57,290 nucleotides of DNA from Candidatus Dormiibacterota bacterium (lineage in GTDB: Bacteria > Chloroflexota > Dormibacteria > Dormibacterales > Dormibacteraceae). The position numbers and the translations under genes were made by a program. The notes under the pieces are model-generated. The model was not told the origin of the DNA. It made no database searches and worked only from the letters and a program-made list of their open reading frames with translations. Shown here in pieces: positions 1,601 to 38,327 of the stretch. Positions within the stretch are counted from its first letter, which is position 1. Each line of letters begins with the position of its first letter. The DNA lies in contig CATPBO010000139.1 of NCBI GenBank assembly GCA_955652835.1, forward strand, positions 1 to 57,290, read 5' to 3'.

Positions 1601-2419
1601 GTGGCCCTCACGACGCGCCCGCTCGACGCGACGGAGATTGCACAGCGGGCGGTGAAGGAATCGCGGCCGGTGGTGGTCGCGGTCGGCGGTGACGGCACCT
1701 TGAATGAGGTCGTCAACGGTTTCTTCCACAACGGGGCACCGATCCCAACGACGAGCAAGCTGGCCATGGTGCCCCTTGGAACGGGCGGGGACTTTCGCCG
1801 GACGATGCGCATCCCGCTCGACAGCAAGGCGGCCATCCAGGTCATCAGCACCGGGCTGGTCAGGCGACTCGACGCGGGCTGCGTCACGTATCAGGACCAC
1901 GATGGCAGCACTGGCGTCAGGCATTTCATCAACATCGCGGACGCCGGCTATGGCGGCGAAGTCGTCCATCGTGTCAACAGGGGCAGCAAGCGGCTGGGCC
2001 CGGCGACGTTCACGCTGACGGCGTTCCTCACGTTGATGGCATGGAAGAACAAACCCATGACCGTGGCCATCGACGGCGTCAGCCATGACCTGGTCGCGCA
2101 GCAGGTCGTGGTCGCGAACTGCCAGTACTTCGGCGGCGGGATGCGGATGGCGCCGGCGGCCTCGCCGACCGATGGGGTTTTCGACGTCATTCTGATCGGT
2201 AACGCCGGCAAGCTCGAGACCATCCGAGGCATGGGCGACATCAGGAACGGCAAGCACCTGGACCAGAGCAACCCGAAGATCCAGCTCGTGTACGGCAAGC
2301 GGATCTCGATCGCGTCGCCCGAGAAGGTGCGCATCGACCTCGACGGCGAGCAGCCAGGTTTCCTGCCGGCGCTCTTTGAAATTCAGCCAGGAGCGATCGA
2401 GTTCATCACGCCTCGGTAA
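1601..2419 (+). CDS. Diacylglycerol-kinase-family lipid kinase (YegS/BmrU-like). The true N-terminus probably lies upstream, near 1478-1505.
   Basis: 'VAVGGDGTLNEVVNG' and 'PLGTGGDF' DAGK catalytic motifs. GTG 1601 is the first canonical start, but the same frame upstream encodes 'VLFIVNPASGAGKA', which is the conserved N-terminal motif (see finding). Confidence 0.8.
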   Translation: MALTTRPLDATEIAQRAVKESRPVVVAVGGDGTLNEVVNGFFHNGAPIPTTSKLAMVPLGTGGDFRRTMRIPLDSKAAIQVISTGLVRRLDAGCVTYQDHDGSTGVRHFINIADAGYGGEVVHRVNRGSKRLGPATFTLTAFLTLMAWKNKPMTVAIDGVSHDLVAQQVVVANCQYFGGGMRMAPAASPTDGVFDVILIGNAGKLETIRGMGDIRNGKHLDQSNPKIQLVYGKRISIASPEKVRIDLDGEQPGFLPALFEIQPGAIEFITPR

Positions 2420-2539
2420 GCGGCTCGAATGCCGCGCGTGCCGGCCGCCGCGGGATTGGCGATGGACCCAAACCCGCCGTAGTCGGCACTGCCAGGAAAA
2501 AAACCTGTCTGTAATCCGGACCCATAGATAATTCGGCCC

Positions 2540-4045
2540 GTGACCAAAGGAGTCATCGCCACACCACACCAGCTTGCATCTGAGGTCGGAGCGCAGGTGC
2601 TTCGCGATGGCGGCAATGCCATTGACGCTGCGATCGCGGCGAATGCGGTCCTATGCGTCGTGTACCCACACATGACTTCTGTCGGCGGCGACTTGATGGC
2701 GATCGTCTGGCCGGCGGGCGCCTCAGGCCCGTTGGGGCTGATCGGGGCCGGACGTTCGGGCGAGCTCGCGACGATCGAGGCCGTTCGATCGCGGGGGCAC
2801 GACGAGATGCCTGAGCGGGGAATCCTCACGGTCACGGTGCCCGGCACCGTCGAAGCATGGGGGCGCCTGCTCGAGCGCTTTGGAACTCTCGGACTCGGCG
2901 CCGTTCTCGAGCCTGCGGCGGCGCTGGCGGGGGACGGCTTTGTCATCACCCCTCAGCTTTCCGACTTCCTAAAGGCGGCCGCGGACGTGCTGGGGCGCGA
3001 GCCCGCCGCGCAGAAGCTGTATCCGCCGATGGAGGCCGGAATGCTCTTGCGAAACCCGGACCTTGCATCTGTTCTGAAGGACATCGGCCGTGGTGGAATC
3101 AGCGGCTTCTATCGAGGCGAGATCGCGTCTGCCATCGCCTCGGCGATCAAGCGGCGTGACGGCCTGGTGACGGCCCGCGACCTGGCCGCTCACCGCTCTC
3201 ACTGGGTGGATCCCATCACAGTCGAATATCGGGACGTCACCGTGTACGAGCTCCCGCCCCCAACCCAGGGCCTCACGGCGCTCGCGATGCTGGCGAGGTT
3301 GAACGAGCTGCCGCACGAAGAGCTGCAGCCCGGCCCTGGATTCGTCGTCCATTTCAAACGGATTCGGGACGCGTGCTATCCGCTGCGCGACCGGTACATA
3401 ACGGACCCGGACTTCGCCGTCGCCCCACTGCAGCCGTTCCTCGATCCGGCCCAGGCGGCGGCGGGCGGTGCTGCTTCGCTACGCGAAGGCGGGGACACCG
3501 TCTATCTGTGCGCCGCCGACGAGCACGGCAACCTGGTTTCGCTGATCCAGAGCGTAGCTTTCGACTTCGGGTCTGGCATCGTCGCCGAGGGAACAGGGAT
3601 GCTGCTGCAGAACCGCGGTGCGTACTTCAGCCTGGCTCCCGACCACGTAAACCGGTTGGAACCTCGCAAGCGGACCATGCACACGCTGATCCCGGCGATG
3701 GCGACCCGCGATGGCCGGCCCTGGAGCATCTTCGGCACCATGGGCGGCGACGGGCAGCCGCAGCTGCAAGCCCAGGTGCTGATCAACCTGGTCGATCACG
3801 CTCTGGATCCGCCCGAGGCTGTGTGGCGGCCGCGGATCAGAGTGCAGGCCGGGGGTGCGCGAACCTCGCTCGAAGCCGACTATCCGCACGCCGCAGAGCT
3901 GGCTCGGTCGGATCGGGGTTTTGAGCTGATGCCGTCGAGACACCACTCGTTCGGCCACGCCCACGCGATAGTCATCGACGGTCCCACAGCATGGCGTGCC
4001 GGCGCAGATCCGCGCTCCGACGGCACCGCGGTATTTGCCCTCTGA
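2540..4045 (+). CDS. ggt: Gamma-glutamyltranspeptidase family protein with no obvious signal peptide
   Basis: N-terminal 'ATPHQLASEVGAQVLRDGGNAIDAAIAA'. Autoprocessing/nucleophile region 'GGDTVYLCAADEHGNLVSLIQSVAFDFGSGIVAEGTGMLLQNRG'. 'FGTMGGDGQPQ' lies near the C-terminus. Confidence 0.85.
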   Translation: MTKGVIATPHQLASEVGAQVLRDGGNAIDAAIAANAVLCVVYPHMTSVGGDLMAIVWPAGASGPLGLIGAGRSGELATIEAVRSRGHDEMPERGILTVTVPGTVEAWGRLLERFGTLGLGAVLEPAAALAGDGFVITPQLSDFLKAAADVLGREPAAQKLYPPMEAGMLLRNPDLASVLKDIGRGGISGFYRGEIASAIASAIKRRDGLVTARDLAAHRSHWVDPITVEYRDVTVYELPPPTQGLTALAMLARLNELPHEELQPGPGFVVHFKRIRDACYPLRDRYITDPDFAVAPLQPFLDPAQAAAGGAASLREGGDTVYLCAADEHGNLVSLIQSVAFDFGSGIVAEGTGMLLQNRGAYFSLAPDHVNRLEPRKRTMHTLIPAMATRDGRPWSIFGTMGGDGQPQLQAQVLINLVDHALDPPEAVWRPRIRVQAGGARTSLEADYPHAAELARSDRGFELMPSRHHSFGHAHAIVIDGPTAWRAGADPRSDGTAVFAL

Positions 4046-4073
4046 CGGCTGAAACTGCCCCGCCCGTATACTT

Positions 4074-4418
4074 TTGCCCAGTTTGGCAGCAGGAACGGAA
4101 GTCAAAGGCAAGCTGATCGCGGAGTACAAACGCGCTGAGAACGACACGGGTTCCCCCGAGGTCCAGATCGCGCTTTCGAACACCCGCATCCGGGAGCTCA
4201 CCGAGCACCTGAAGACGCATGCCAAGGACCATCACTCGCGCCGCGGCCTCCTTCTCCTGGTGGGCAAGCAACGGCGCCTGCTGAACTACCTGAAGGACAC
4301 CGACATCGAGCGGTATCGGGCTCTTGTCGGCAAGCTCGGAATCAGGGTAGCCGGGCGCACCAAGCTAACGGGGCGCGCGCAGGCCGCCCCAACTGGACCG
4401 GAAGCGCCGGTCACGTAA
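4074..4418 (+). CDS. rpsO: 30S ribosomal protein S15 with a ~25-aa C-terminal extension
   Basis: '[68 protein letters not shown]'. TTG 4083 would give a more typical N-terminal length than TTG 4074. Confidence 0.9.
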
Positions 4419-29172: not shown

Positions 29173-30468
29173 ATGATCACGACCAGGTCGCCGCGAGAGC
29201 GGGTATATCTCGTAGGCGTTTTGCTTCCAGGCTCCACCGAGGACCTGGTGCACGAGCAGATGGTCGAGCTGGCCGATCTGGCCCGCACTGCAGGCGCGGA
29301 AGTCGTGGGTTCGGACGTGCAGCGGCGCAGCCAGGTGGATGCCAGGCACTTCATCGGCATGGGCAAGGTCGAGGAGCTGCGCGAGATGAAGCTCGAAGGC
29401 GCCTTCGACGTGATCATGTGCAACGAGGACCTCAGTCCTCGGCAGCAGAGAAACCTCGAGCTCGAATTGAAAACCAGGGTGCTCGATCGCACCGAGGTGA
29501 TCCTCGAGATCTTCGCCCAGCACGCGCGCACTCACGAAGGGCGACTGCAGGTTGAGTCGGCACGGCTTCATCACCTGCTGCCACGCCTGATCGGCGCGTA
29601 CGCCTATGACCGCCAGGTCGGTGGGCGCCGCGGCGGTGTGGGAGCCCGCGGTGGCTTCGGCGAGCAGCAGATCGAGGTCGAGCGACGGCGAATCCGCCGG
29701 CGGATGCGTGACCTCGAGCGCGAGATCGAGCAGGTGCGAACCCAGCGCCACCAGCAGCGCACTGGGCGGCGTCGCGCTGCCCTGGAGACCGCCGCGATCG
29801 TCGGCTATACCAACGCCGGCAAGTCGACGCTGCTGAACGCACTGACCGGGGCCGGTGTGCGCGCTGAGCAACGGCTTTTCGCCACGCTCGATCCGACGAC
29901 GAGGAAGGTCGAGCTGCCGGCCGGTCGCGAGCTGCTCATCACCGACACGGTCGGTTTTATCCAGAAGCTGCCCACCGACCTCGTGGCAGCCTTCAGGGCA
30001 ACGCTGGAAGAGGTGACTGAGGCCGACCTCATCGTCCAGGTGCTGGATGCCAGCTCGCCGGCCGTTGAGGAGCAGGCAGCGACGGTGGAGAAGATCCTGG
30101 GCGACCTCGGTGCCGCCGACAAGCCGCGCGTGGTTGCGCTCAACAAGGTGGACCTCCTGGGGCCTGCGTCCCGCCGCCGGGCCGTCGGCGCTCTGTCGAG
30201 TCTTTACCCAGGCGCGATTCCGATCTCCGCGACTAATCGCACCGGATTGATCGACCTCCTGGGCGCCGTGGACCAGGCGAGCCGCGCCGACATCGTCGAC
30301 CTCGAGATCCTGGTGCCGTACGGAAGCGAGAAGGTGCTCGCCGCCTTGCGCAAGGTCGGTGGGGTGGAACGCACCGAATATGTGGAAGGCGGCACCAGGG
30401 CCTGGGGCTGGGTGCCCCGGCACGAGGCGCGACGCTTCGAGGCTTTTGCGGCTAGCGGAACATCCTGA
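29173..30468 (+). CDS. hflX: GTPase HflX
   Basis: HflX N-domain 'RQQRNLELELKTRVLDRTEVILEIFAQHARTHEGRLQVE'. G-domain 'VGYTNAGKSTLLNALT', 'DTVGFI', 'LNKVD'. Confidence 0.9.
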   Translation: MITTRSPRERVYLVGVLLPGSTEDLVHEQMVELADLARTAGAEVVGSDVQRRSQVDARHFIGMGKVEELREMKLEGAFDVIMCNEDLSPRQQRNLELELKTRVLDRTEVILEIFAQHARTHEGRLQVESARLHHLLPRLIGAYAYDRQVGGRRGGVGARGGFGEQQIEVERRRIRRRMRDLEREIEQVRTQRHQQRTGRRRAALETAAIVGYTNAGKSTLLNALTGAGVRAEQRLFATLDPTTRKVELPAGRELLITDTVGFIQKLPTDLVAAFRATLEEVTEADLIVQVLDASSPAVEEQAATVEKILGDLGAADKPRVVALNKVDLLGPASRRRAVGALSSLYPGAIPISATNRTGLIDLLGAVDQASRADIVDLEILVPYGSEKVLAALRKVGGVERTEYVEGGTRAWGWVPRHEARRFEAFAASGTS

Positions 30469-31066
30469 TCACGCCGCGGACCACGCCGACCAGGCTCACG
30501 TTGGTCGTCACGATCGGCTCGTAGGCCGGGTTCTCGGCAATCAACTTGACATGGCCGTTGCCGCGCTCGAACCGCTTGACGGTCGCGTCTCCGTCGACCA
30601 GGGCGACGACGATCGTGCCGTTCGCGGCCTCCTGCTGAGGACGCACCAGGACGAGGTCGCCGTCCAGGATGCAGGCGTTGATCATGCTGTCCCCACGCAC
30701 GCGGAGCAGGAAAAAGCCTTCCTGCGCCAGCTCGGGCGAAAGCAAAAGGTGGTCCTCGATGTTCTGCTCGGCCAGGATCGGGGCGCCGGCGGCGACGTTA
30801 CCGACGATCGGGACCGAGATGGCATTGCGCCTCTGCGTGTCGACGCCTGCGTCCTGGACCAGCTGCACGGTGCGGGACTTGCTGGGGTCGCGCTTGATCA
30901 GGCCGCGCCGCTCCAGCTGGTTGAGGTGGTTGTGGACGGTTGAGCTCGAGCTCAGGCCGACCGCTTCTCCGATTTCGCGCACGCTCGGCGGATAGCTGCG
31001 GGCCCGGGTTACATACCTGATGTAGTCGAGGATCTTGGTCTGCCGTTCAGTCAGCTGTTCGTTCAA
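30452..31066 (-). CDS. lexA: SOS repressor LexA
   Basis: Winged-helix N-domain 'PPSVREIGEAVGLSSSSTVHNHLNQLERRGLI', cleavage site 'VAAGAP', and S24 peptidase 'VRGDSMI' / 'ATVKRF'. TTG start. Confidence 0.95.
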   Translation of the reverse strand: MNEQLTERQTKILDYIRYVTRARSYPPSVREIGEAVGLSSSSTVHNHLNQLERRGLIKRDPSKSRTVQLVQDAGVDTQRRNAISVPIVGNVAAGAPILAEQNIEDHLLLSPELAQEGFFLLRVRGDSMINACILDGDLVLVRPQQEAANGTIVVALVDGDATVKRFERGNGHVKLIAENPAYEPIVTTNVSLVGVVRGVIRMFR

Positions 31067-31521: not shown

Positions 31522-31749
31522 GTGGCCGTGGTCCTGATCACCCGCCAGGGCTGTCATCTATGCGACGAGGCGCTGACGGCGCTGCGCTCGCTTGGCGTCG
31601 AGCCTGAGCTGCAGGACGTCGACGCCGACGATCGCCTGCACGATCTGTACGACTTCCGGGTTCCGGTGGTGCTGCTGGACGGGCGGATCGTCGGGGAGGG
31701 CCGAGTCGGCCGTGACGAGCTCCGACGCGCCTTAGACCTCGGCTTCTGA
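31522..31749 (+). CDS. Glutaredoxin-like protein (DUF836 type)
   Basis: 75 aa, with the 'CHLCDEA' redox motif and 'VPVVLLDG'. Confidence 0.7.
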   Translation: MAVVLITRQGCHLCDEALTALRSLGVEPELQDVDADDRLHDLYDFRVPVVLLDGRIVGEGRVGRDELRRALDLGF

Positions 31750-32277
31750 GACGGTGATCACGCATTCAGGGTCTCCCCGATGCATGCAGCGCTCCTCTGA
31801 GATCGTGACCCCGACCCCGTAGTGTGTGGCGGCACCCCTGATGATGCCCTTGGCGAGCGCGCACATCGCACGCTTGGACCTGTACGTGATCGCGACTGAG
31901 TCTGAGCCCGCCCGCTCGGCCTGCAGGGCAGGCGGCTGGGCATTCAGCGAGTTGAGCCTGACCCCGCGATGCACGACGTCTTCTGTATGGAGTAGGAAAT
32001 CCATGAAGCTCCACCGTGGGTTGATCAGGAACCCGTACACCTCGAGCAAGCCCGGCACGAGGGCTTCGCCAAATTCCTCGACGATCACCTGTGGCTGGCG
32101 GCCGGTTTCTGCGACCACGACCCCCACGATCGTCGAGAGCTCGTTGTCCGGGTAGGTGGCGCCCAACTCGTAGCCGCGGTCATCGCGCCCAGTCACGCTG
32201 CGAATGCGAGTCAGGGCGGTCGGGCCCAGCTCCTTTGCTATGTACTTTTCCAGCTCGTCGAAGATGACGCCTTGCAT
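31732..32277 (-). CDS. Stand-alone H-NOX (heme NO/O2-binding) domain protein, copy 2
   Basis: ATG 32277 sits within the longer ORF 31732..32679. 'MQGVIFDELEKYI', 'RWSFMDFLLHTEDVVHRGV' (candidate proximal His), 'ITYRSKRAMC' (YxSxR), and C-terminal 'CMHRGDPEC'. Confidence 0.6.
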   Translation of the reverse strand: MQGVIFDELEKYIAKELGPTALTRIRSVTGRDDRGYELGATYPDNELSTIVGVVVAETGRQPQVIVEEFGEALVPGLLEVYGFLINPRWSFMDFLLHTEDVVHRGVRLNSLNAQPPALQAERAGSDSVAITYRSKRAMCALAKGIIRGAATHYGVGVTISEERCMHRGDPECVITVSEAEV

Positions 32278-32290
32278 CGTGCGCTTCCGG

Positions 32291-32839
32291 CTAGTCGAGA
32301 CCGGCTTCGACCACGAGGACGCAGGCAGGATCGCCTCGAAGCACGCACGCCTCCTCCGTGATGGTGAACTCAACGGCATAGTGCTCGGCCGCACCGAGGA
32401 TGACTCCGCGGACCTCGGAGCATGCGCGGAGTGGAGATTCGTACACGATCCTGACCGTCTGCGGCCCGACGCGCGTCGCGTGAACCTTTGTCGGCTGCGC
32501 GCCCGGCGCGTGCAGGCGGAGGGCTGAGTGCAGCACCGGCTCCATTCCAAGCAGGAAGTCGATAAAGCTCCAGCGCGGATTGACGAGGATGTTGTAGAGC
32601 TTGAACATGTCCGGGACCATCGCCTTGCCGAAACCTTCGAGCACGTCGGCCACCGGCTTGCCGGTGACCTCGGAGGCACGCAGAGCGAGCACCCCGAGCT
32701 CCGCGTCCGGATAGGCTAGGTCGAGGGCGTACTGGTGGGTCGCCGGCCGCCCCGACCCTGTCAGCACCTGAACCCAGGCCGGCTGACCGTACGCGTCGAC
32801 GACGTACATCCGCAGCTCATCCAGAATCACACCCTGCAT
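32291..32839 (-). CDS. Stand-alone H-NOX domain protein, copy 1
   Basis: Paralogous to copy 2 along its whole length. 'MQGVILDELRMYV', 'RWSFIDFLLGMEPVLHSAL', 'IVYESPLRAC' (a variant of YxSxR), 'CVLRGDPAC'. Confidence 0.6.
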   Translation of the reverse strand: MQGVILDELRMYVVDAYGQPAWVQVLTGSGRPATHQYALDLAYPDAELGVLALRASEVTGKPVADVLEGFGKAMVPDMFKLYNILVNPRWSFIDFLLGMEPVLHSALRLHAPGAQPTKVHATRVGPQTVRIVYESPLRACSEVRGVILGAAEHYAVEFTITEEACVLRGDPACVLVVEAGLD

Positions 32840-33022
32840 CTGAGCTGATCGTAGGTACCGACCGGACCGTTGTCGCCCTAAGAACTCCCGGTTCTTTGCC
32901 CCGGGGCCCAGGGTCAGTTGAGCTAGCCCTCCTAGTTGGGGAAGGGCTACTTAAGGTTGTACCAGCCTCACTTAATGGTGACGATAATTGACCTTATTCA
33001 GTCCATAAGCGCCCCTCGTCGC

Positions 33023-33083
33023 GCTCGTTTGGCGCCAAAAGCGCCTATTCATGAGTGCGATTCGGCTCGTTTGGCGCTAAAAG
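33023..33083. repeat. Two 19-nt direct repeats, each centred on a TTTGGCGC(C/T)AAA palindrome
   Basis: GCTCGTTTGGCGCCAAAAG (33023-33041) and GCTCGTTTGGCGCTAAAAG (33065-33083), with a 42-nt period. They lie immediately 3' of the stop of the minus-strand orphan gene. Confidence 0.55.
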
Positions 33084-33089
33084 AGCGGA

Positions 33090-33455
33090 TTAGGCGGAGC
33101 GCTGCAGGGCCGGCTCGCTGTCCAGGCCGCGCATGAAGATCTCCAGCGGCAGCGCCGCTCCCTCGAAGTCCTGGCGCAGCAGCTCCAGGTCGGCGCCTGC
33201 CTGCTGGACGCCTGCGATCGCCAGCTCGATCGTGCGTAAAGCGTCGCGCACGTAGCGCTCCAGCGAGCCGGGAAGCGGACTGGACGCGTTTTCGCGCCTC
33301 CAGGCCTCGCGCACCTGGGCGGCAAGCTCCAGTAGCCTGGCAACCGTCGACCCGGCCATCTGGCGCTCCTGAGGGTCCGACACAAGGCGATTCAGCGCCT
33401 CGTCGAAGAGGCGGATCAGCCGCCGAAGCCGGACCTGGGTGCTCAAAGTACGCAT
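33090..33455 (-). CDS. LexA-box-controlled orphan protein; 121 aa, predicted all-helical, no recognisable domain
   Basis: ORF 33090..33467. The GTG at 33467 abuts the predicted -10, so ATG 33455 is preferred. Strong GC3 bias. I recognise no motif. Confidence 0.6.
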   Translation of the reverse strand: MRTLSTQVRLRRLIRLFDEALNRLVSDPQERQMAGSTVARLLELAAQVREAWRRENASSPLPGSLERYVRDALRTIELAIAGVQQAGADLELLRQDFEGAALPLEIFMRGLDSEPALQRSA

Positions 33456-33467
33456 GTTCGCAATCAC

Positions 33468-33496
33468 AGCATAGCGAACAGGTGTTCGGATTGCAA
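33468..33496 (-). promoter_or_regulatory. SOS-type promoter of the orphan gene, with a LexA box in the spacer
   Basis: On the minus strand: TTGCAA (33496-33491), a 17-nt spacer, TATGCT (33473-33468). The spacer carries the perfect box CGAACACCTGTTCG (33488-33475). The ATG lies 12 nt after the -10, so the mRNA would be near-leaderless. Confidence 0.7.
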
Positions 33497-33510
33497 CTGT
33501 TCAGGCGTCC

Positions 33511-33528
33511 TTGGCGTGTTAACGCCAA
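33511..33528. other. Perfect hairpin/palindrome TTGGCGT-GTTA-ACGCCAA in the mntP / orphan-gene intergenic region
   Basis: 7-bp arms. It shares TTGGCG/CGCCAA half-sites with the palindromes at 33028-33039 and 33070-33081. Confidence 0.4.
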
Positions 33529-33589
33529 ACGGCCCCTGAGCACTCGCGGGTGATCTTCCCCACCTCGAGTTGCAACAATCCGCACCGGA

Positions 33590-34159
33590 TTGAGACAGCT
33601 CCTCATCACCGCCGGGCTCTTGCTGCCGCTCGCCCTGGACACCTTCGCGCTGGCGGCGGCGCTGGGAATGGCGGGCCTCGAAGCCCGCGATCGACTTCGG
33701 GTGACGCTGGTTTTCACCGCCTTCGAAGCCGGCATGCCGATCGTCGGGCTGCTGATCGGCCGCGCCGCCGGCAGCTTCCTGGGCGTCTGGGCGGGATATG
33801 GCGGAATCGCATTCATTTTCCTGGCAGGCGTGCTTCTCCTGCGACCGGGCCAGGACGAAAAGGACGAGACGCGGAGGCTGAAGCTGCTGGCGCACGCCCG
33901 CGGCCTGGCCATCCTCGACCTAGGGCTCAGCATCAGCGTCGACGAGCTGACGATCGGACTCAGCGCCGGGCTGCTCGGCCTTTCAATCCTGCTGACGGTG
34001 GTCTGGATCGGTGTCCAGGCATTCGTGGCGGCTCAGATCGGACTCAGGCTGGGCAACCGCGTGGCCAAAGAGTTTCGCGAGCGGGCGGAGTGGGTGGCTG
34101 GGGTGGCCCTGATCTTTGTCGCGGTCGCTCTACTGGCACTCAGGCTCGCGAAGCTCTGA
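33590..34159 (+). CDS. mntP: Manganese efflux pump MntP (two DUF204 repeats)
   Basis: 189 aa with 6 TM helices. Repeated motifs 'LALDTFALAAALG' and 'ISVDELTIGLSAG'. Confidence 0.8.
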   Translation: MRQLLITAGLLLPLALDTFALAAALGMAGLEARDRLRVTLVFTAFEAGMPIVGLLIGRAAGSFLGVWAGYGGIAFIFLAGVLLLRPGQDEKDETRRLKLLAHARGLAILDLGLSISVDELTIGLSAGLLGLSILLTVVWIGVQAFVAAQIGLRLGNRVAKEFRERAEWVAGVALIFVAVALLALRLAKL

Positions 34160-35392
34160 CGAGCTGCACCTCTCGAGCACGGCCTCGTAATCGGCCGGAC
34201 CGCGGCGATAGGCGTGGTACGCGCTGACCAACGGGACATAACCCACGCTCACAAGCCGGTCGTACGAAACCTCTTTGAAGTTGCGCCGGCTGTGGACCCC
34301 CGCCACGGCAAAACGCAGCTGCTCCTGGATCAATCCATCCATCCGGCGCAGCGTCGCGTCACTGCTGAGCAGCGGGAAGAACCAGCTCGCCCACGTGAAA
34401 TCGGAGGGCCGGCCGCCGACGCCGAAGAGGCGCCGATTGAGCCTGCGTACGGCGTGCAGCGCGGGATCCTGCCGACGCCGCGCGCGCCTGGCGATGCGCC
34501 GAACACGGCGGCGCAGCTTGCCGACCGTGTTGGTGGCCAGGTCGAGGGCTCCCCGTTCGTATCTCAAGCCGAGGAACTCCCACGGCACGCCCGGAGGGCT
34601 GAGCCTGGTCTTTCGCGCGTTGAGGGCGAGGCCCAGATCCGCCAGGCGCCGCTCGATGTCAGCGCCGTAGCGCGTGATCTCCTGTTCGGTCCCAAAAACA
34701 ACCATGTCGTCCGCGTAGCGCACGAATGGAATCCGCGCCTCCTCGAACGCTGCATCGAGTGGGCGAAGGTAAAGATTGGAAAGGAGCGGCGCGATCGGCG
34801 TGCCGGCCATCACACCTTTATGAGAGTCGCTGATCTGTTCGTCTCCGCTGAGGACGTGTTGATCGCGCAGCGTCTTTGCCAGCAGTTGATGGAGCGGCTC
34901 ATCGTCAGTGATCGTCTGCGGGAGTGACGCGAGCAGCGGCTCCACTGGAATGCTGTTGAAGTAGTCGCGGACATCGAGGTGCAGGCAGTGCAGCTTCTGC
35001 AGTCCACGAATCCCGCGAATTTCCCGGTACGCCGTGCGCGGTCCCCGGCCCGGCTGAAACGAATGGCAGACACGCGAGTGGTCCCGTGCGGTGGTGGATT
35101 GCAAGACCCTGTTGAGACCTTTGAGCAGGAGCTCGTCAGCCAGGGCGAACGTGAAGACGACCTTCTTGCGGCCGTCCGACTTGTTCAGCAGCCGGCGGGT
35201 GGGGGGCCCAAGTGAAAGCACGCCGGCCCCATATTCGTCGACCATCCTCCCCACCTCGCCACCGGCAAGGAGCTCGCGATAAGCAGCGAGCTTGCGGCGA
35301 CCCCAGCGACCGTAGCCGTCGCTTTGAGCCAGCAGGTCATCCCAAAACTCCGCCGAGCTGAGCCGATCGACGGTCGGCGATTCAGTGAGCAA
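34130..35392 (-). CDS. Stand-alone reverse transcriptase (YADD); class not assignable by eye
   Basis: RT motifs in order: 'VVFTFALADELLLKGLNRVL' (1), 'CHSFQPGRGPRTA' (2), 'LHLDVRDYFNSIP' (3), 'GVMAGTPIAPLLSNLYLRPLD' (4), 'FVRYADDMVVFG' (5), 'LALNARKTRL' (6), 'WEFLGLRY' (7). These are followed by a ~130-aa Arg-rich C-terminal region. TTG start with no SD. Confidence 0.85.
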   Translation of the reverse strand: MLTESPTVDRLSSAEFWDDLLAQSDGYGRWGRRKLAAYRELLAGGEVGRMVDEYGAGVLSLGPPTRRLLNKSDGRKKVVFTFALADELLLKGLNRVLQSTTARDHSRVCHSFQPGRGPRTAYREIRGIRGLQKLHCLHLDVRDYFNSIPVEPLLASLPQTITDDEPLHQLLAKTLRDQHVLSGDEQISDSHKGVMAGTPIAPLLSNLYLRPLDAAFEEARIPFVRYADDMVVFGTEQEITRYGADIERRLADLGLALNARKTRLSPPGVPWEFLGLRYERGALDLATNTVGKLRRRVRRIARRARRRQDPALHAVRRLNRRLFGVGGRPSDFTWASWFFPLLSSDATLRRMDGLIQEQLRFAVAGVHSRRNFKEVSYDRLVSVGYVPLVSAYHAYRRGPADYEAVLERCSSSELREPECQ

Positions 35393-35524
35393 GGGAGAGG
35401 TCTTTTTGAAAGACGGTGTAGCCGTCTACACGAACGTACATCGGGCGCCCGCCCTCACAGGTTGTCAAGGCCCGCGGCTGGTCCGCATCGAGGACACCCC
35501 CGAAGGGGTATCTCCCTTGCTCGC
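35385..35524 (-). ncRNA. Candidate structured RNA upstream of and overlapping the RT start codon
   Basis: On the minus strand, GAGCAAGGGAGA (35522-35511) pairs perfectly with TCTCCCTTGCTC (35398-35387) and encloses 112 nt. Inside are a CCCC-UUCG-GGGG hairpin (35509-35496), AGACGG-CUACA-CCGUCU (35427-35411) and GCGG-ACCAG-CCGC (35486-35474). A GATAAT -10-like hexamer (35535-35530) would place the TSS at the base of the stem. Confidence 0.45.
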
Positions 35525-35553
35525 GGATTATTATCCGGGTCAGGAGCACAAGC

Positions 35554-36015
35554 ATGGCATCACAGCAACCGCGACGGAAGAAGGCCGACCTCCTCAATGA
35601 AGGGCTCGCCAGCAGCAGCGGAACGATGGCCGAGCTGAAGAGCCTCGCGTCCTCTCTGAACCTGATGGAGGATCGCTACATGGCGAGGCCGGCCGCCGAG
35701 CTGTTGGTCGAACGCGGAGATCCAGACGCGCCCCAGATCGCACAGGGCCTTGCCGCGACACCAGTGCTTGGACGAGATCCCAACGGCGACCTGTTGCGTG
35801 CCGCCTTCAAGAAGGCTCTCGCCCACGAAGGGATACCAAGCGACATCGACCAGATGGCACGACGGTTTTACGGAGGGCGCGGGCATGGCGGCGCAAGTAA
35901 GCCGCAACCCAGCGCCGCCTCAAAAGTTGATTCGTTCGGTTGGGAGAACCCTGCAGGCGCCTCGACGTCTGGCGGGCTCATGGGCATGATTCGCCGCCTG
36001 TTTGGCGGTGACTAG
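35554..36015 (+). CDS. Hypothetical 153-aa protein, divergent from the RT
   Basis: AGGAG lies 8 nt upstream of the ATG. The protein has a basic N-terminus, a central helical region, a Gly/Ser-rich segment and a C-terminal amphipathic motif 'GLMGMIRRLFGG'. I recognise no domain. Confidence 0.55.
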   Translation: MASQQPRRKKADLLNEGLASSSGTMAELKSLASSLNLMEDRYMARPAAELLVERGDPDAPQIAQGLAATPVLGRDPNGDLLRAAFKKALAHEGIPSDIDQMARRFYGGRGHGGASKPQPSAASKVDSFGWENPAGASTSGGLMGMIRRLFGGD

Positions 36016-36021
36016 GCGGTC

Positions 36022-36822
36022 TTAGCCGATCAGCTCGATCGACAGCTCGTTCCAGGGGTCAAGGTCAGAAGCAAACCGCCCGTATCGGTTGGGCACGAGC
36101 CATACGTGCAGCATCCACGGCGTGAAGTACGTCGCGGAGCCGGCCGGGCAGCCTGGGGCCGCGCCAACCACCTCGCCTCCCGGTGTGAAGCAGAGGTCGT
36201 CGTGACGGTGCCACGGCATCAGCTCGCCGGCCACATCGGGGGGCGCCGCGTTCGGATCCTCCAGCGAGTACATCGCCGCCACCAGCACCGGTCCGTGCAC
36301 TGTGTTCTCATACACGAGCGACTCGACGTGTTGAGGGTCCAGAACCCGGCCGTCCTGCATGTAGGCCGGCTTGACGTAGTGGACGAGCAGCTGGCCGATC
36401 GGGTTGTACGCGATGTAGCCGTCAGCCCTGGCAGCTGCGAGCGACCTGTAGCGCTCCGTCGCCGATTCCGTCTGCTGCCACAGCTGGTTGGCCGCCGCCC
36501 GCTGCTCCGGCGTGCCGGTTGGGAGCCGTGGGACTGTCAGCATCGCGTCCGCGATCCAGCCCACCGAGGCCAGGATCGGCAGCAGCGCCGCCAGGCCCAG
36601 CCACCTGTTCACGCTGCGCCCGATCACCCACGCCGCCGAGCAAGCAGCGACCAGGACCCCGGCCGCGATCAGGTCGTGGGCGGGGATCAGGACGTCCAGC
36701 GGAGACTCGTGCGCGGCGAGCGCCGGATTGGCGCTGTGTATCGAAATGTCCCAGGCCAGGCCGAGGAGAGCCGCGGCGGCGCCGCCGAAGCAAATCAGCA
36801 ACACGGGATTGGCGCGGCTCAT
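36022..36822 (-). CDS. Hypothetical membrane protein (3 TM helices plus a ~170-aa extracytoplasmic domain)
   Basis: ATG 36822 ('MSRANPVLLICFGGAAAALLGLAW') sits within ORF 36022..37044. I recognise no motif. Confidence 0.55.
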   Translation of the reverse strand: MSRANPVLLICFGGAAAALLGLAWDISIHSANPALAAHESPLDVLIPAHDLIAAGVLVAACSAAWVIGRSVNRWLGLAALLPILASVGWIADAMLTVPRLPTGTPEQRAAANQLWQQTESATERYRSLAAARADGYIAYNPIGQLLVHYVKPAYMQDGRVLDPQHVESLVYENTVHGPVLVAAMYSLEDPNAAPPDVAGELMPWHRHDDLCFTPGGEVVGAAPGCPAGSATYFTPWMLHVWLVPNRYGRFASDLDPWNELSIELIG

Positions 36823-36885
36823 TTCGGGAGGATAGTGCCCGCTGATACTTACGTTGGCCGGCTGCGTTAGGTAACCAGGAATCGA

Positions 36886-37092
36886 ATGCCGAACTGGTTG
36901 ACGCACAAACGGATCGTTTTGCTCGGCGTCGTCGCTGTGGTTGTTCTCCTCTGGGCGATCGCCTTCGTGGCACCGCCCGCACGCGAGGTGCATACCTCCG
37001 GCGCAACAGCGTTGAATTTGTCGCTGGTCTACAGCGACGTCCACCTACCCCCGATGTTGGTCCAGCCCAGCCAGTCAATTTCTGATTCCTGA
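36886..37092 (+). CDS. Hypothetical small membrane-anchored protein
   Basis: 68 aa with the TM helix 'IVLLGVVAVVVLLWAIAFV'. Its stop overlaps the next start (TGATG). Confidence 0.4.
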   Translation: MPNWLTHKRIVLLGVVAVVVLLWAIAFVAPPAREVHTSGATALNLSLVYSDVHLPPMLVQPSQSISDS

Positions 37093-37724
37093 TGGACGCT
37101 CAGCCGCGCCACGTTCAGCAGCTTCGTACCCACACGTGGGTCGTTGTGCTCAGCGCCGCAGTCGCTGTGATCATCGAGCTGGCACAGCTGTTGGTCTTGG
37201 CCGAGCTGTGGGTTGTGCCGCAGGCACACGACGTCTACTCGCCCAACGCCATCCCGATCAAGGTCCGGACCGCTGCATCCCAAACGCCCGCGCTGACGAC
37301 AACGGCGAGCGAATCACTCGCTGAGGTTCGCTGCGAGGTCTGGCACGCTGGAGACTGGACTGGTCAGCAGTTCGCGCCCAAAACTGGTCCTTGCCCTGAC
37401 GATGCGACGCTCGAATTGGCCTACTGGCCTCAGTTTTCCCAGAGCCCGAAGACTCTCTACCTGGCGTGGAGGCGCTGCTCGGTCTTCAACGTCGAGTACA
37501 TCGACGTCAACCGAACCTTGATCATCCACTGCTACTCGGCCGGAACCTTGATCCCACCTCTCAGGCTTCCTGGTGTCGTCGCCCAGTCATTTCTCGACCT
37601 TATGGTGGTGCCAACCGACGCCCTCTCGCCTGGAAGCCTCGGCATCATCGAAGACGACCGCGTCGAGCACTTCATCGGCGATTACAGCAGCGAAGTCCTG
37701 CTCGCGACCGCAACGATCTCCTGA
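37092..37724 (+). CDS. Hypothetical membrane-anchored protein with 4 Cys
   Basis: 210 aa with an N-terminal TM helix followed by a soluble domain. It is translationally coupled to the preceding ORF. The DNA is visibly more A/T-rich than the core genes. Confidence 0.5.
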   Translation: MDAQPRHVQQLRTHTWVVVLSAAVAVIIELAQLLVLAELWVVPQAHDVYSPNAIPIKVRTAASQTPALTTTASESLAEVRCEVWHAGDWTGQQFAPKTGPCPDDATLELAYWPQFSQSPKTLYLAWRRCSVFNVEYIDVNRTLIIHCYSAGTLIPPLRLPGVVAQSFLDLMVVPTDALSPGSLGIIEDDRVEHFIGDYSSEVLLATATIS

Positions 37725-37727
37725 CCT

Positions 37728-38327
37728 CTAAGGGGCGAAGATCCGGCAGAGGCTTTCCGACAGCGACTCCGCATCGGCGCCCGGGTGGGTCAGGTAGTAG
37801 CCCACGGCGTCGCTGACCGCCCCCACGACGGCGCGACCGAAGACCTGCGGATCCTTGTCAGCATAAAAAGGATCGTGAACCGTGGCATGGCGGACCTCCT
37901 CGGCCACCGCGTCCGCGAACTGGCTCTGCAGCTCCTGTCGAACTCTATCGACGCCCGCGCTGAGGCCCACCGACTCCACGATCAGCAGGCGCGCGACCGA
38001 CGACCGGTCGAAGCACGACCGCACGAAAGTGGTGATGCCCAGCCGAAGCCTCTCGTGGTGGTTGCGACCCAGCGCCGCTTCCGCGAGCACGTCATCGATC
38101 AGCGATCCACCTTCATGCGACAGCAGCTCGCGGAAGCAGTCCTCCTTCGACGTGAAGAACTCATAGAACGCAGACTTGGACACCTTGGCCCGCTCCACGA
38201 CCTCTTCGACCGAGGTCGCGTTGTAGCCAAGCGTGGCGAACAGGTCGAGGGCGGCGCTGGCGATCCGCCTCCGGCGCCTCTCCAGCCTTACGTCTTTCCG
38301 CAGCTGGGCGCCGGACGCTGTCGCCAT
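37728..38327 (-). CDS. TetR-family transcriptional regulator
   Basis: ATG 38327 ('MATASGAQL..'). HTH 'ASAALDLFATLGYNATSVEEVVERAKVSKSAFYEFFTSKEDCF'. Confidence 0.85.
   Translation of the reverse strand: MATASGAQLRKDVRLERRRRRIASAALDLFATLGYNATSVEEVVERAKVSKSAFYEFFTSKEDCFRELLSHEGGSLIDDVLAEAALGRNHHERLRLGITTFVRSCFDRSSVARLLIVESVGLSAGVDRVRQELQSQFADAVAEEVRHATVHDPFYADKDPQVFGRAVVGAVSDAVGYYLTHPGADAESLSESLCRIFAP

Follow-up and report, generated by a model that had tools for sequence, protein, structure and literature searches.

The class 2 UG reverse transcriptases (RTs) characterised so far all use an adjacent noncoding RNA (ncRNA) as a template (10.1101/2025.10.16.682844; 10.64898/2026.04.29.721553; 10.64898/2026.09.22.753630), and the same mode of templating has been predicted for further members of the class (10.64898/2026.04.29.721553, which summarises DRT2, DRT9, and DRT3). 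DRT2 copies a 120-nt unit by rolling circle, and DRT9 copies a U-tract into poly-dA (10.64898/2026.04.29.721553). The RNA of DRT10 is 137 nt long and consists of a central stem with small stem-loops, where a template loop of the form A-B-A' after SL5 gives rise to tandem repeats of 7-9 nt; DRT9 and DRT10 are both protein-primed (10.1101/2025.10.16.682844). UG27 has units of ~150 nt with a basal hairpin and a pseudoknot, and it makes short hairpin complementary DNAs (10.64898/2026.09.22.753630). For the UG26 group, Mestre et al. 2022 reported no ncRNA (PMC9226505). The motif RT-5 (Rfam RF03026) is one of the motifs RT-1 to RT-19 that were found near RT genes, with an unknown function and described as "perhaps retrons" (Weinberg et al. 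2017, PMC5737381). Our literature search returned no paper that mentions UG26 together with an ncRNA, none that mentions RF03026, and none that links RT-5 to UG26. Here, we analysed 57,290 nt of DNA from a Dormibacterota bacterium (contig CATPBO010000139.1; the whole stretch is referred to as the window) and found that an inverted repeat at the start of an RT gene closes a real, conserved, and pseudoknotted RNA of ~136 nt that is tied to UG26 RTs. Its identity is largely explained: the element is a divergent ncRNA of the RT-5 type and the partner of a UG26 RT.

On re-checking, every coordinate and sequence that the initial annotation lists for the element proved correct, and its outer stem (P1) was reproduced exactly. 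P1 consists of 12 bp without mismatch between GAGCAAGGGAGA (35522-35511) and TCTCCCTTGCTC (35398-35387) on the minus strand, which enclose 112 nt; an imperfect extension brings the repeat to 17 positions that are 88% complementary (35527-35511 / 35398-35382). The fold energy of the 156-nt RNA was -66.1 kcal/mol as compared to a mean of -50.3 for dinucleotide-shuffled sequences (z = -3.78), and none of the 200 shuffles was as good.

The upstream regions of RT homologs were then compared. There are at least 177 RT homologs at E <= 1e-10, and among the matches listed, all named ones are metagenome-assembled genomes (MAGs) of Candidatus Dormibacterota. We fetched 34 genome and 69 metagenome loci, which are denoted below by L numbers where they have to be told apart. 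A covariance model of the element (R1) gave 84 hits in 100 loci, with one copy per locus and always on the RT strand; the R1-negative loci that were checked begin within the RT gene, so no upstream sequence is available there. The element adjoins every RT homolog that has upstream sequence, and its taxa comprise Dormibacterota, Chloroflexota, Acidobacteriota, Acidimicrobiia, Bacillota, and Bacteroidota. In the 57-kb window, R1 found a single copy (147 bits, E 3e-30). The length from P1 to P1 is 135-140 nt in 51 of the 58 unique sequences. At the distant locus L090, the RNA (1631-1800; 39.5 bits with the Rfam model and 34.7 bits with R1) lies directly 3' of the RT (353-1609), which indicates that the RNA is a separable module. 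A convergent open reading frame (ORF) of 742 aa, which resembles a superfamily 1 helicase by eye, follows the RNA at this locus (1885-4113, minus strand).

The fold was evaluated in two alignments. A2 was made with MAFFT from 59 elements, and helices P1, P2, and a were derived from it with RNAalifold; helices b, c, and P5 were added under the guidance of the RT-5 consensus. A3 was guided by a covariance model from which helix a is absent, and it holds 84 sequences. In A2, 94.9% of the cells were paired, as compared to 44-52% in slid controls, and 29 of the 43 pairs showed compensatory changes, while the corresponding values in A3 were 96.2%, 41-56%, and 33 of 38 pairs. The observed level was reached by none of 500 shuffles in either alignment. 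For P1, double changes occurred at all 12 pairs with 98% of the cells paired (A3), and its two arms change together across homologs (GAGCAAGGGAGA/TCTCCCTTGCTC, GAGCAGGGAAGA/TCTTCCCTGCTC, GAGCCGGGGAGA/TCTCCCCGGCTC, GGGCAAGGACGA/TCGTCCTTGCCC, and GAGCGGGAGGGA/TCCCTCCCGCTC). At homologous loci, both the stem and the ~135-140-nt element as a whole are conserved and covarying. The proposal of a genuine multi-hairpin RNA, closed by a terminal inverted repeat and placed directly 5' of the RT on the same strand, is supported by these results.

Five helices enter the A3 count. The core is a pseudoknot, since helix a crosses helices b and c; helix a is 98.6% paired even though it lies outside the covariance model, with double changes at four of its seven pairs (A3). 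Helix b is the counterpart of the outer part of the long hairpin of Rfam RT-5, and helix c carries a 2x2 internal mismatch in the lineage of the window. None of 59 sequences departs from GUAC at four positions of the aligned element (G92, T93, A94, and C95). The hairpin P2 was found in the Dormibacterota and Acidimicrobiia lineages and is missing in canonical RT-5 RNAs. Four internal features had been described from the window sequence, all of which are present as described, but only two of them are conserved pairings. The UUCG hairpin (35509-35496) and AGACGG-CUACA-CCGUCU (35427-35411) correspond to the supported helices P2 and P5, whereas the hairpin GCGG-ACCAG-CCGC (35486-35474) and the palindrome GGGCGCCC (35450-35443) are not conserved, and their nucleotides serve the long-range helices b and c.

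The RT next to this RNA is assigned by its profile matches to UG26, a group of class 2 UG/Abi enzymes. Its best PADLOC match is RT_UG26 (E 5.6e-88), where residues 8-396 cover positions 4-396 of the 398-position profile, followed at a distance by the generic RT model PDLC01136 (2.9e-39), RT_UG17, i.e., DRT10 (6.6e-31), and then UG4, UG27 (1.2e-23), and Drt9. RVT_1 is the sole Pfam domain in the protein. An AlphaFold2 (AF2) model with a predicted local distance difference test (pLDDT) score of 91 was closest to the group II intron RT GsI-IIC (template-modelling (TM) score 0.75), then to DRT9, G2L4, and DRT2, and a profile search against PDB sequences agrees with this structural ranking. A C-terminal Tyr in the motif GY.PLV..YH and the residue W17 are conserved. 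We found no relatives of this RT in phage, plasmid, and IMG/VR collections.

A link to RT-5 came from Rfam, whose whole RT-5 model (1-104) matches 35398-35499 on the minus strand with 27.5 bits (E 0.002-0.03). This score is under the gathering threshold of 45.7 bits. Nevertheless, the architecture of RT-5, namely an interrupted long hairpin, a short second hairpin, and a U.AAA tail, is present in the element, and the homologous b/c hairpin (GGAC.CAGC, GUAC..UC.G), the P5 hairpin, and the tail are found at matching positions beside a UG26 RT; b, c, and P5 covary in 59-84 homologs. Intermediates such as L090 (39.5 bits) and L009 (31.6 bits) bridge the scores toward canonical RT-5 RNAs, which reach 68.7-88.9 bits and lie directly 5' of RTs in MAGs of Alistipes, Bacteroidales, Clostridia, and Oscillospiraceae. 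The RTs beside canonical RT-5 RNAs have 32-35% identity to the window RT, and those of L027, L029, and L032 match RT_UG26 with E values of 1e-157 to 1e-167, the best of the RTs scored; for comparison, an Acidimicrobiia RT matches the UG26 profile at E 2.6e-77. Because canonical UG26 RTs carry RT-5, RT-5 appears to be the RNA partner of UG26, and the element in the window is assigned by homology as a divergent member of the motif below the Rfam threshold.

There are also differences between the two sets of RNAs. The window RNA has the extra UUCG hairpin P2, and RNAs of the window type come from high-GC soil phyla, whereas RT-5 comes from Bacteroidota and Bacillota. The Rfam RT-5 model contains neither the outer stem P1 nor the pseudoknot helix, but both are seen in canonical loci. 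Canonical RT-5 loci have an outer stem of one purine-rich and one pyrimidine-rich arm, with a run of 12-20 bp in six loci (8 bp in L090) that spans 139-146 nt, and in L027, L029, L030, L032, and L102, all of the canonical RT-5 type, a pseudoknot can be seen between a 5' GCGCCUGCG and a UUGCAGGC loop. In several of the canonical loci, the 3' arm with its pyrimidines consists of low-complexity CU sequence.

Upstream of the element, the initial annotation had pointed to a GATAAT hexamer as a possible promoter feature, and the position of this hexamer relative to the stem proved to be conserved across lineages. All loci of Dormibacterota, Chloroflexota, Acidobacteriota, and Acidimicrobiia have a -10-like box that precedes P1 by 6-8 nt. 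It reads GATAAT or CATAAT in Dormibacterota and Chloroflexota, TAGAAT in the Acidiferrales locus, TAGCGT in most Acidimicrobiia, and TATACT in L017, a Dormibacteraeota-labelled MAG that groups with the Acidimicrobiia. A scan with the generic sigma-70 -35/-10 consensus found no promoter pair, so the promoter call rests on positional conservation. The AT-rich patch at 35525-35536 reads -10-like on both strands (GATAAT, and TATTAT on the plus strand upstream of the gene c2), which suggests overlapping divergent promoters. The features of the element and its surroundings are collected in the table.

Features of the RNA element, the RT gene, and neighbouring genes in the window (c2 and c3 are our labels for two neighbouring protein families)
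Feature	Position	Strand	Remarks
-10-like hexamer GATAAT	35530..35535	-	7 nt upstream of P1
P1 5' arm GAGCAAGGGAGA, purine-rich	35511..35522	-	imperfect extension to 35527; 12 of 12 pairs covary
P2 hairpin A-CCCC-UUCG-GGGG-U	35496..35509	-	double changes at 5 of 5 pairs; 99% paired
Helix a 5' strand GUCCUCG (pseudoknot strand)	35489..35495	-	partner 35457-35451
Helix b 5' strand CGGAC	35481..35485	-	partner GUUCG 35435-35431; double changes at 5 of 5 pairs
Helix c 5' strand GCCGCGGGC	35470..35478	-	partner 35446-35438; double changes at 7 of 9 pairs; 90.6% paired
Variable loop CUUGACAACCUG, between helix c and a'	35458..35469	-	length and sequence differ by lineage
Helix a 3' strand UGAGGGC	35451..35457	-	inside the loop of helix c, hence pseudoknot
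Helix c 3' strand GCCCGAUGU and invariant GUAC (35439-35436)	35436..35446	-	alignment and A3 covariation
Helix b 3' strand GUUCG	35431..35435	-	A3 covariation
P5 hairpin GACGG-CUACA-CCGUC	35412..35426	-	98.8% paired; double changes at 4 of 5 pairs (A2)
Single-stranded-looking segment UUUCAAAAAGACC with conserved U(U/G)CAAA	35399..35411	-	candidate template loop by analogy
P1 3' arm UCUCCCUUGCUC, pyrimidine-rich	35387..35398	-	holds the RT TTG start 35392-35390
RT, 420 aa, YADD; assigned to UG26 (class 2 UG/Abi)	34130..35392	-	PADLOC, Pfam, AF2
c2, 153 aa	35554..36015	+	divergent from the RNA; ATG 31 nt from P1
MntP (manganese efflux)	33590-34159	+	convergent with the RT; overlaps the RT 3' end by 30 nt
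c3, 125 aa (121-125 aa in the family)	33090-33467	-	also L104:6001-6366
H-NOX (HNOB) haem-NO-binding domain, two overlapping ORF calls	31732-32839	-	just downstream of c3
LexA	30452-31066		after H-NOX
HflX	29173-30468		after H-NOX

The comparison with the RT-adjacent ncRNAs of DRT systems, made in the initial annotation, was the right one, since the RT belongs by its profile to UG26 and hence to class 2 UG/Abi. The window locus shares with DRT10 (UG17) a class 2 UG RT and an adjacent ncRNA of ~137 nt with a closing stem around small stem-loops, as well as a single-stranded stretch that separates the last hairpin from the closing stem (10.1101/2025.10.16.682844). However, the RT group is different, as UG17 is the third PADLOC match and the second among UG groups; the window locus has no SLATT gene, and its RNA lies directly 5' of the RT instead of upstream of a SLATT gene. 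The core of the window RNA is pseudoknotted, and no clear A-B-A' template was found in it. UG27 also combines a class 2 UG RT with ~150-nt units that have a basal hairpin and a pseudoknot (10.64898/2026.09.22.753630), but it occurs as multi-unit arrays with two accessory ORFs in gut phages, whereas the window has a single chromosomal unit with c2 as its neighbour. As in DRT2 (UG2), the RT gene is immediately preceded by the ncRNA in the same orientation, and the two ends of the RNA interior are brought together by a stem. Unlike in DRT2, the unit length in the window family is not constrained by reading frame, and no concatemer ORF is supported. A Neo-like endless ORF was rejected on these grounds: the lengths of 58 unique sequences fall into the three classes modulo 3 as 24/18/16, and circular reading of the window unit, taken as 136 or as 112 nt, meets stop codons on both strands. 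This test covered two junction choices and whole-element units.

By analogy with these systems, we consider the element to be probably the cognate scaffold and template RNA of the UG26 RT, with a probability of roughly 0.7. The RNA would be transcribed from its own -10-type promoter, starting at about the base of P1, and the RT transcript would begin with it. The RNA would fold into a unit of ~136 nt made of P1, the clade-specific P2, the pseudoknotted core with GUAC, P5, and the U(U/G)CAAA segment that leads into P1. The UG26 RT may bind this fold and copy a short internal segment into DNA, and the DNA product would probably be repetitive and possibly protein-primed, as in DRT2, DRT9, DRT10, and UG27. 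In Dormibacterota, the 3' arm of P1 covers the TTG start of the RT, so that a given molecule could either fold or be translated into the RT, but not both at once; such coupling would be secondary and lineage-specific.

The stretch from P5 to the UUUCAAAAAGACC segment (35427-35399) is a tentative candidate for the template, and we regard this placement as doubtful. It is preferred because the template loop of DRT10 is found at the corresponding place, between a stable hairpin on its 5' side and the closing stem on its 3' side. The 5' strand of P5 recurs after UCAAA, as AGAC..AGAC at a distance of 24 nt in the window, as AAACCGG..AAACCGG elsewhere, and as a covarying AAACUGG..AAACUGG in L071. 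One possibility is that the product would be a hairpin-forming tandem repeat of ~19-24 nt copied from P5 and the UCAAA segment, i.e., the complement of AGACGGCUACACCGUCUUUCAAAA. Repeats of the A-B-A' form in the variable loop (CCU..CCU, CCUG..CCUG, and CGUG..CGUG) looked promising by eye and were dropped after a shuffle test.

Several observations weigh against a templating role or against a role like that of the known systems. In the shuffle test, the variable loop (35469-35458) showed no enrichment of flanking direct repeats of the A-B-A' form (median p 0.9, with 2 of 63 below 0.1). The repeat of the P5 strand after CAAA is weakly above mismatched pairings (mean 3.97 vs 3.15 nt), and it is explained equally well by an alternative hairpin, P6 (GUCUU/AAGAC), in which the UUUCAAAAAGACC segment could pair with the 3' strand of P5. 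The association of UG26 with defence is inconclusive (Mestre et al. 2022, PMC9226505), and the neighbouring ORFs include neither SLATT nor any other defence effector known to PADLOC or Pfam. The locus lies among housekeeping genes and not in a defence island, and its biological role may thus differ from those of the characterised DRTs. The source organism is uncultured, and the reading of UG26 function is based on sequence.

The element could instead be a pure cis-regulatory leader, that is, a structure in the 5' untranslated region that occludes the RT start or the ribosome-binding region. The RT might bind such a leader to regulate its own expression, and no DNA would ever be made from it. 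A scan for intrinsic terminators found none between the RNA and the RT ORF, and in the window and its close relatives, the TTG (35392-35390) lies within the 3' arm of P1; it is confirmed as the first start codon past the upstream in-frame stop and is the sole canonical start ahead of W17. The sequestration of the start codon that had been proposed holds positionally in the window and in its Dormibacterota relatives, but the TTG inside the 3' arm of P1 is the RT start only in this clade. Elsewhere, the candidate start is placed 1 to ~94 nt downstream of P1: it is an ATG at +1 or, in Bacillota and Bacteroidota, at +20/+23, a GTG at +8 to +44 in Acidimicrobiia, and lies at +94 in L012, while in L090 the RNA follows the RT. 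Since the start position is variable across lineages, occlusion does not appear to be what the family is conserved for, and the overlap with the start codon is at most a lineage-specific add-on, not the purpose of the element. An invariant GUAC and a covarying pseudoknot over six phyla would far exceed the needs of occlusion, and every characterised class 2 relative templates from its RNA, which makes the leader explanation unlikely.

Even less likely, in our judgement, is a retron-like msr/msd arrangement, in which P1 would act as the a1/a2 repeat, a guanosine 2'-OH at the base of the stem would prime synthesis, and a branched RNA-DNA msDNA would be made from the interior. The architecture is alike, as the initial annotation had pointed out, in that an RNA with several hairpins, closed by an inverted repeat at its ends, immediately precedes the RT gene in the same orientation, and many of the RT motifs were speculated to be retron RNAs (Weinberg et al. 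2017, PMC5737381); P1 is formally a closing repeat of this kind, which is not diagnostic. What speaks against retron membership is the RT family together with the RNA core. Retron-type models of PADLOC give E values of 1e-11 to 1e-13 as compared to 5.6e-88 for UG26, and the NCBIfam model retron_St85_RT yields 41.3 bits, with a cut-off of 235, which leaves the RT far below the thresholds of retron models. The core is a pseudoknotted RT-5 homolog instead of separate msr hairpins and a long msd hairpin, and protein priming is what characterises the class 2 relatives DRT9 and DRT10 (10.1101/2025.10.16.682844). A remnant or component of a mobile retroelement, such as a group II intron or a diversity-generating retroelement (DGR), with the RNA as a decayed ribozyme or template repeat, is hardly credible. 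The similarity of the RT to GsI-IIC, its best solved structural match, fits such an origin, and group_II_RT_mat (TIGR04416) is the top NCBIfam model; its score of 110.9 bits, however, is far from the cut-off of 300. An Rfam scan of 33000-38000 gave RT-5 only and no group II intron, and neither intron domains V/VI nor a pair of variable and template repeats (VR/TR) is present. Moreover, the window has one RNA copy and no second repeat, the locus is syntenic over divergent Dormibacterota, and no relatives were found in phage, plasmid, and viral collections.

The neighbours of the RNA-RT pair in the window encode HflX, LexA, LysM, H-NOX, MntP, an acyl-CoA dehydrogenase, an enoyl-CoA hydratase, and a CoA transferase. 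In the clade of the window, c2 is the constant neighbour of the RNA-RT pair, always in divergent orientation, and is present at 34 loci with RT identities of 51-88%. The c2 family has 221 members, which are found on contigs of the same lengths as the RT contigs, and in two further contexts it is again divergent to an RT. Its core (EDRY.ARPAAELL ... EGIP...AR.FY) is conserved and is followed by a tail with RRLFG, and no match was found in Pfam, PADLOC, and NCBIfam. A resemblance of c2 to bS21 was considered unreliable: the PDB profile match had an E value of 0.014, but the Pfam family Ribosomal_S21 was touched by only 1 of 17 members (E 0.11).

The gene c3, for which we found 581 homologs, is usually coupled translationally to the RT through an ATGA overlap with the RT stop and directly follows the RT in most relatives; a MntP gene in the window, or a methyltransferase gene in L106, is inserted between the two. 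It is also found at the same syntenic site in genomes without c2, the RNA, and the RT. This excludes c3 as an obligate partner of the RT, and it indicates that the RT module is a presence/absence polymorphism. From the gene order, the unit appears to be c2-RNA-RT, whose presence varies at one constant place in the chromosome, close to LexA and HflX. A role of c3 as a MazG-like nucleoside triphosphate pyrophosphatase was rejected, as AF2 models the protein as a generic four-helix bundle, for which PDB gave no significant match.

The Acidimicrobiia loci have different neighbour genes. A conserved protein of 190-200 aa without a known domain is encoded immediately 3' of the RT in convergent orientation (L013:6165-6755, minus strand, and equivalents in 24 Acidimicrobiia loci), and a DoxX/MauE-like membrane protein is encoded upstream. 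Repeats were seen at three loci just 3' of the RNA. In L016, a perfect tandem repeat of the 18-nt unit CCTCCCGCTCGCCTCAGG (269-371; 5.7 copies, 100% identical) begins inside the 3' arm of P1 and separates the RNA from the likely start of the RT, where every copy is a possible alternative 3' arm of P1. A longer repeat unit occurs in two copies in each of L013 and L015.

The class 2 UG RTs studied so far (DRT2, DRT9, DRT10, UG27, and DRT3) each write DNA off a small RNA in a different and unexpected way. A further possibility, which we consider doubtful, is that UG26 and its RT-5-type RNA form a distinct DNA-synthesising ribonucleoprotein, with a product unlike those of DRT2, DRT9, DRT10, and UG27. 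In Dormibacterota, this would be a chromosomal three-part module of c2, RNA, and RT outside defence islands, and it may serve for something other than classical phage defence.

With these results, UG26 gains an RNA partner with boundaries, a covariation-backed pseudoknotted fold, a promoter, and a candidate template region, and the motif RT-5, an orphan whose function has been unknown since 2017, is tied to one RT family. The RNA-RT pair extends to poorly known soil phyla, including Dormibacterota, Acidimicrobiia, and Chloroflexota, where it is accompanied by lineage-specific partner genes. The element provides a well-defined entry point to an uncharacterised class 2 RT system, and UG26 becomes directly testable.

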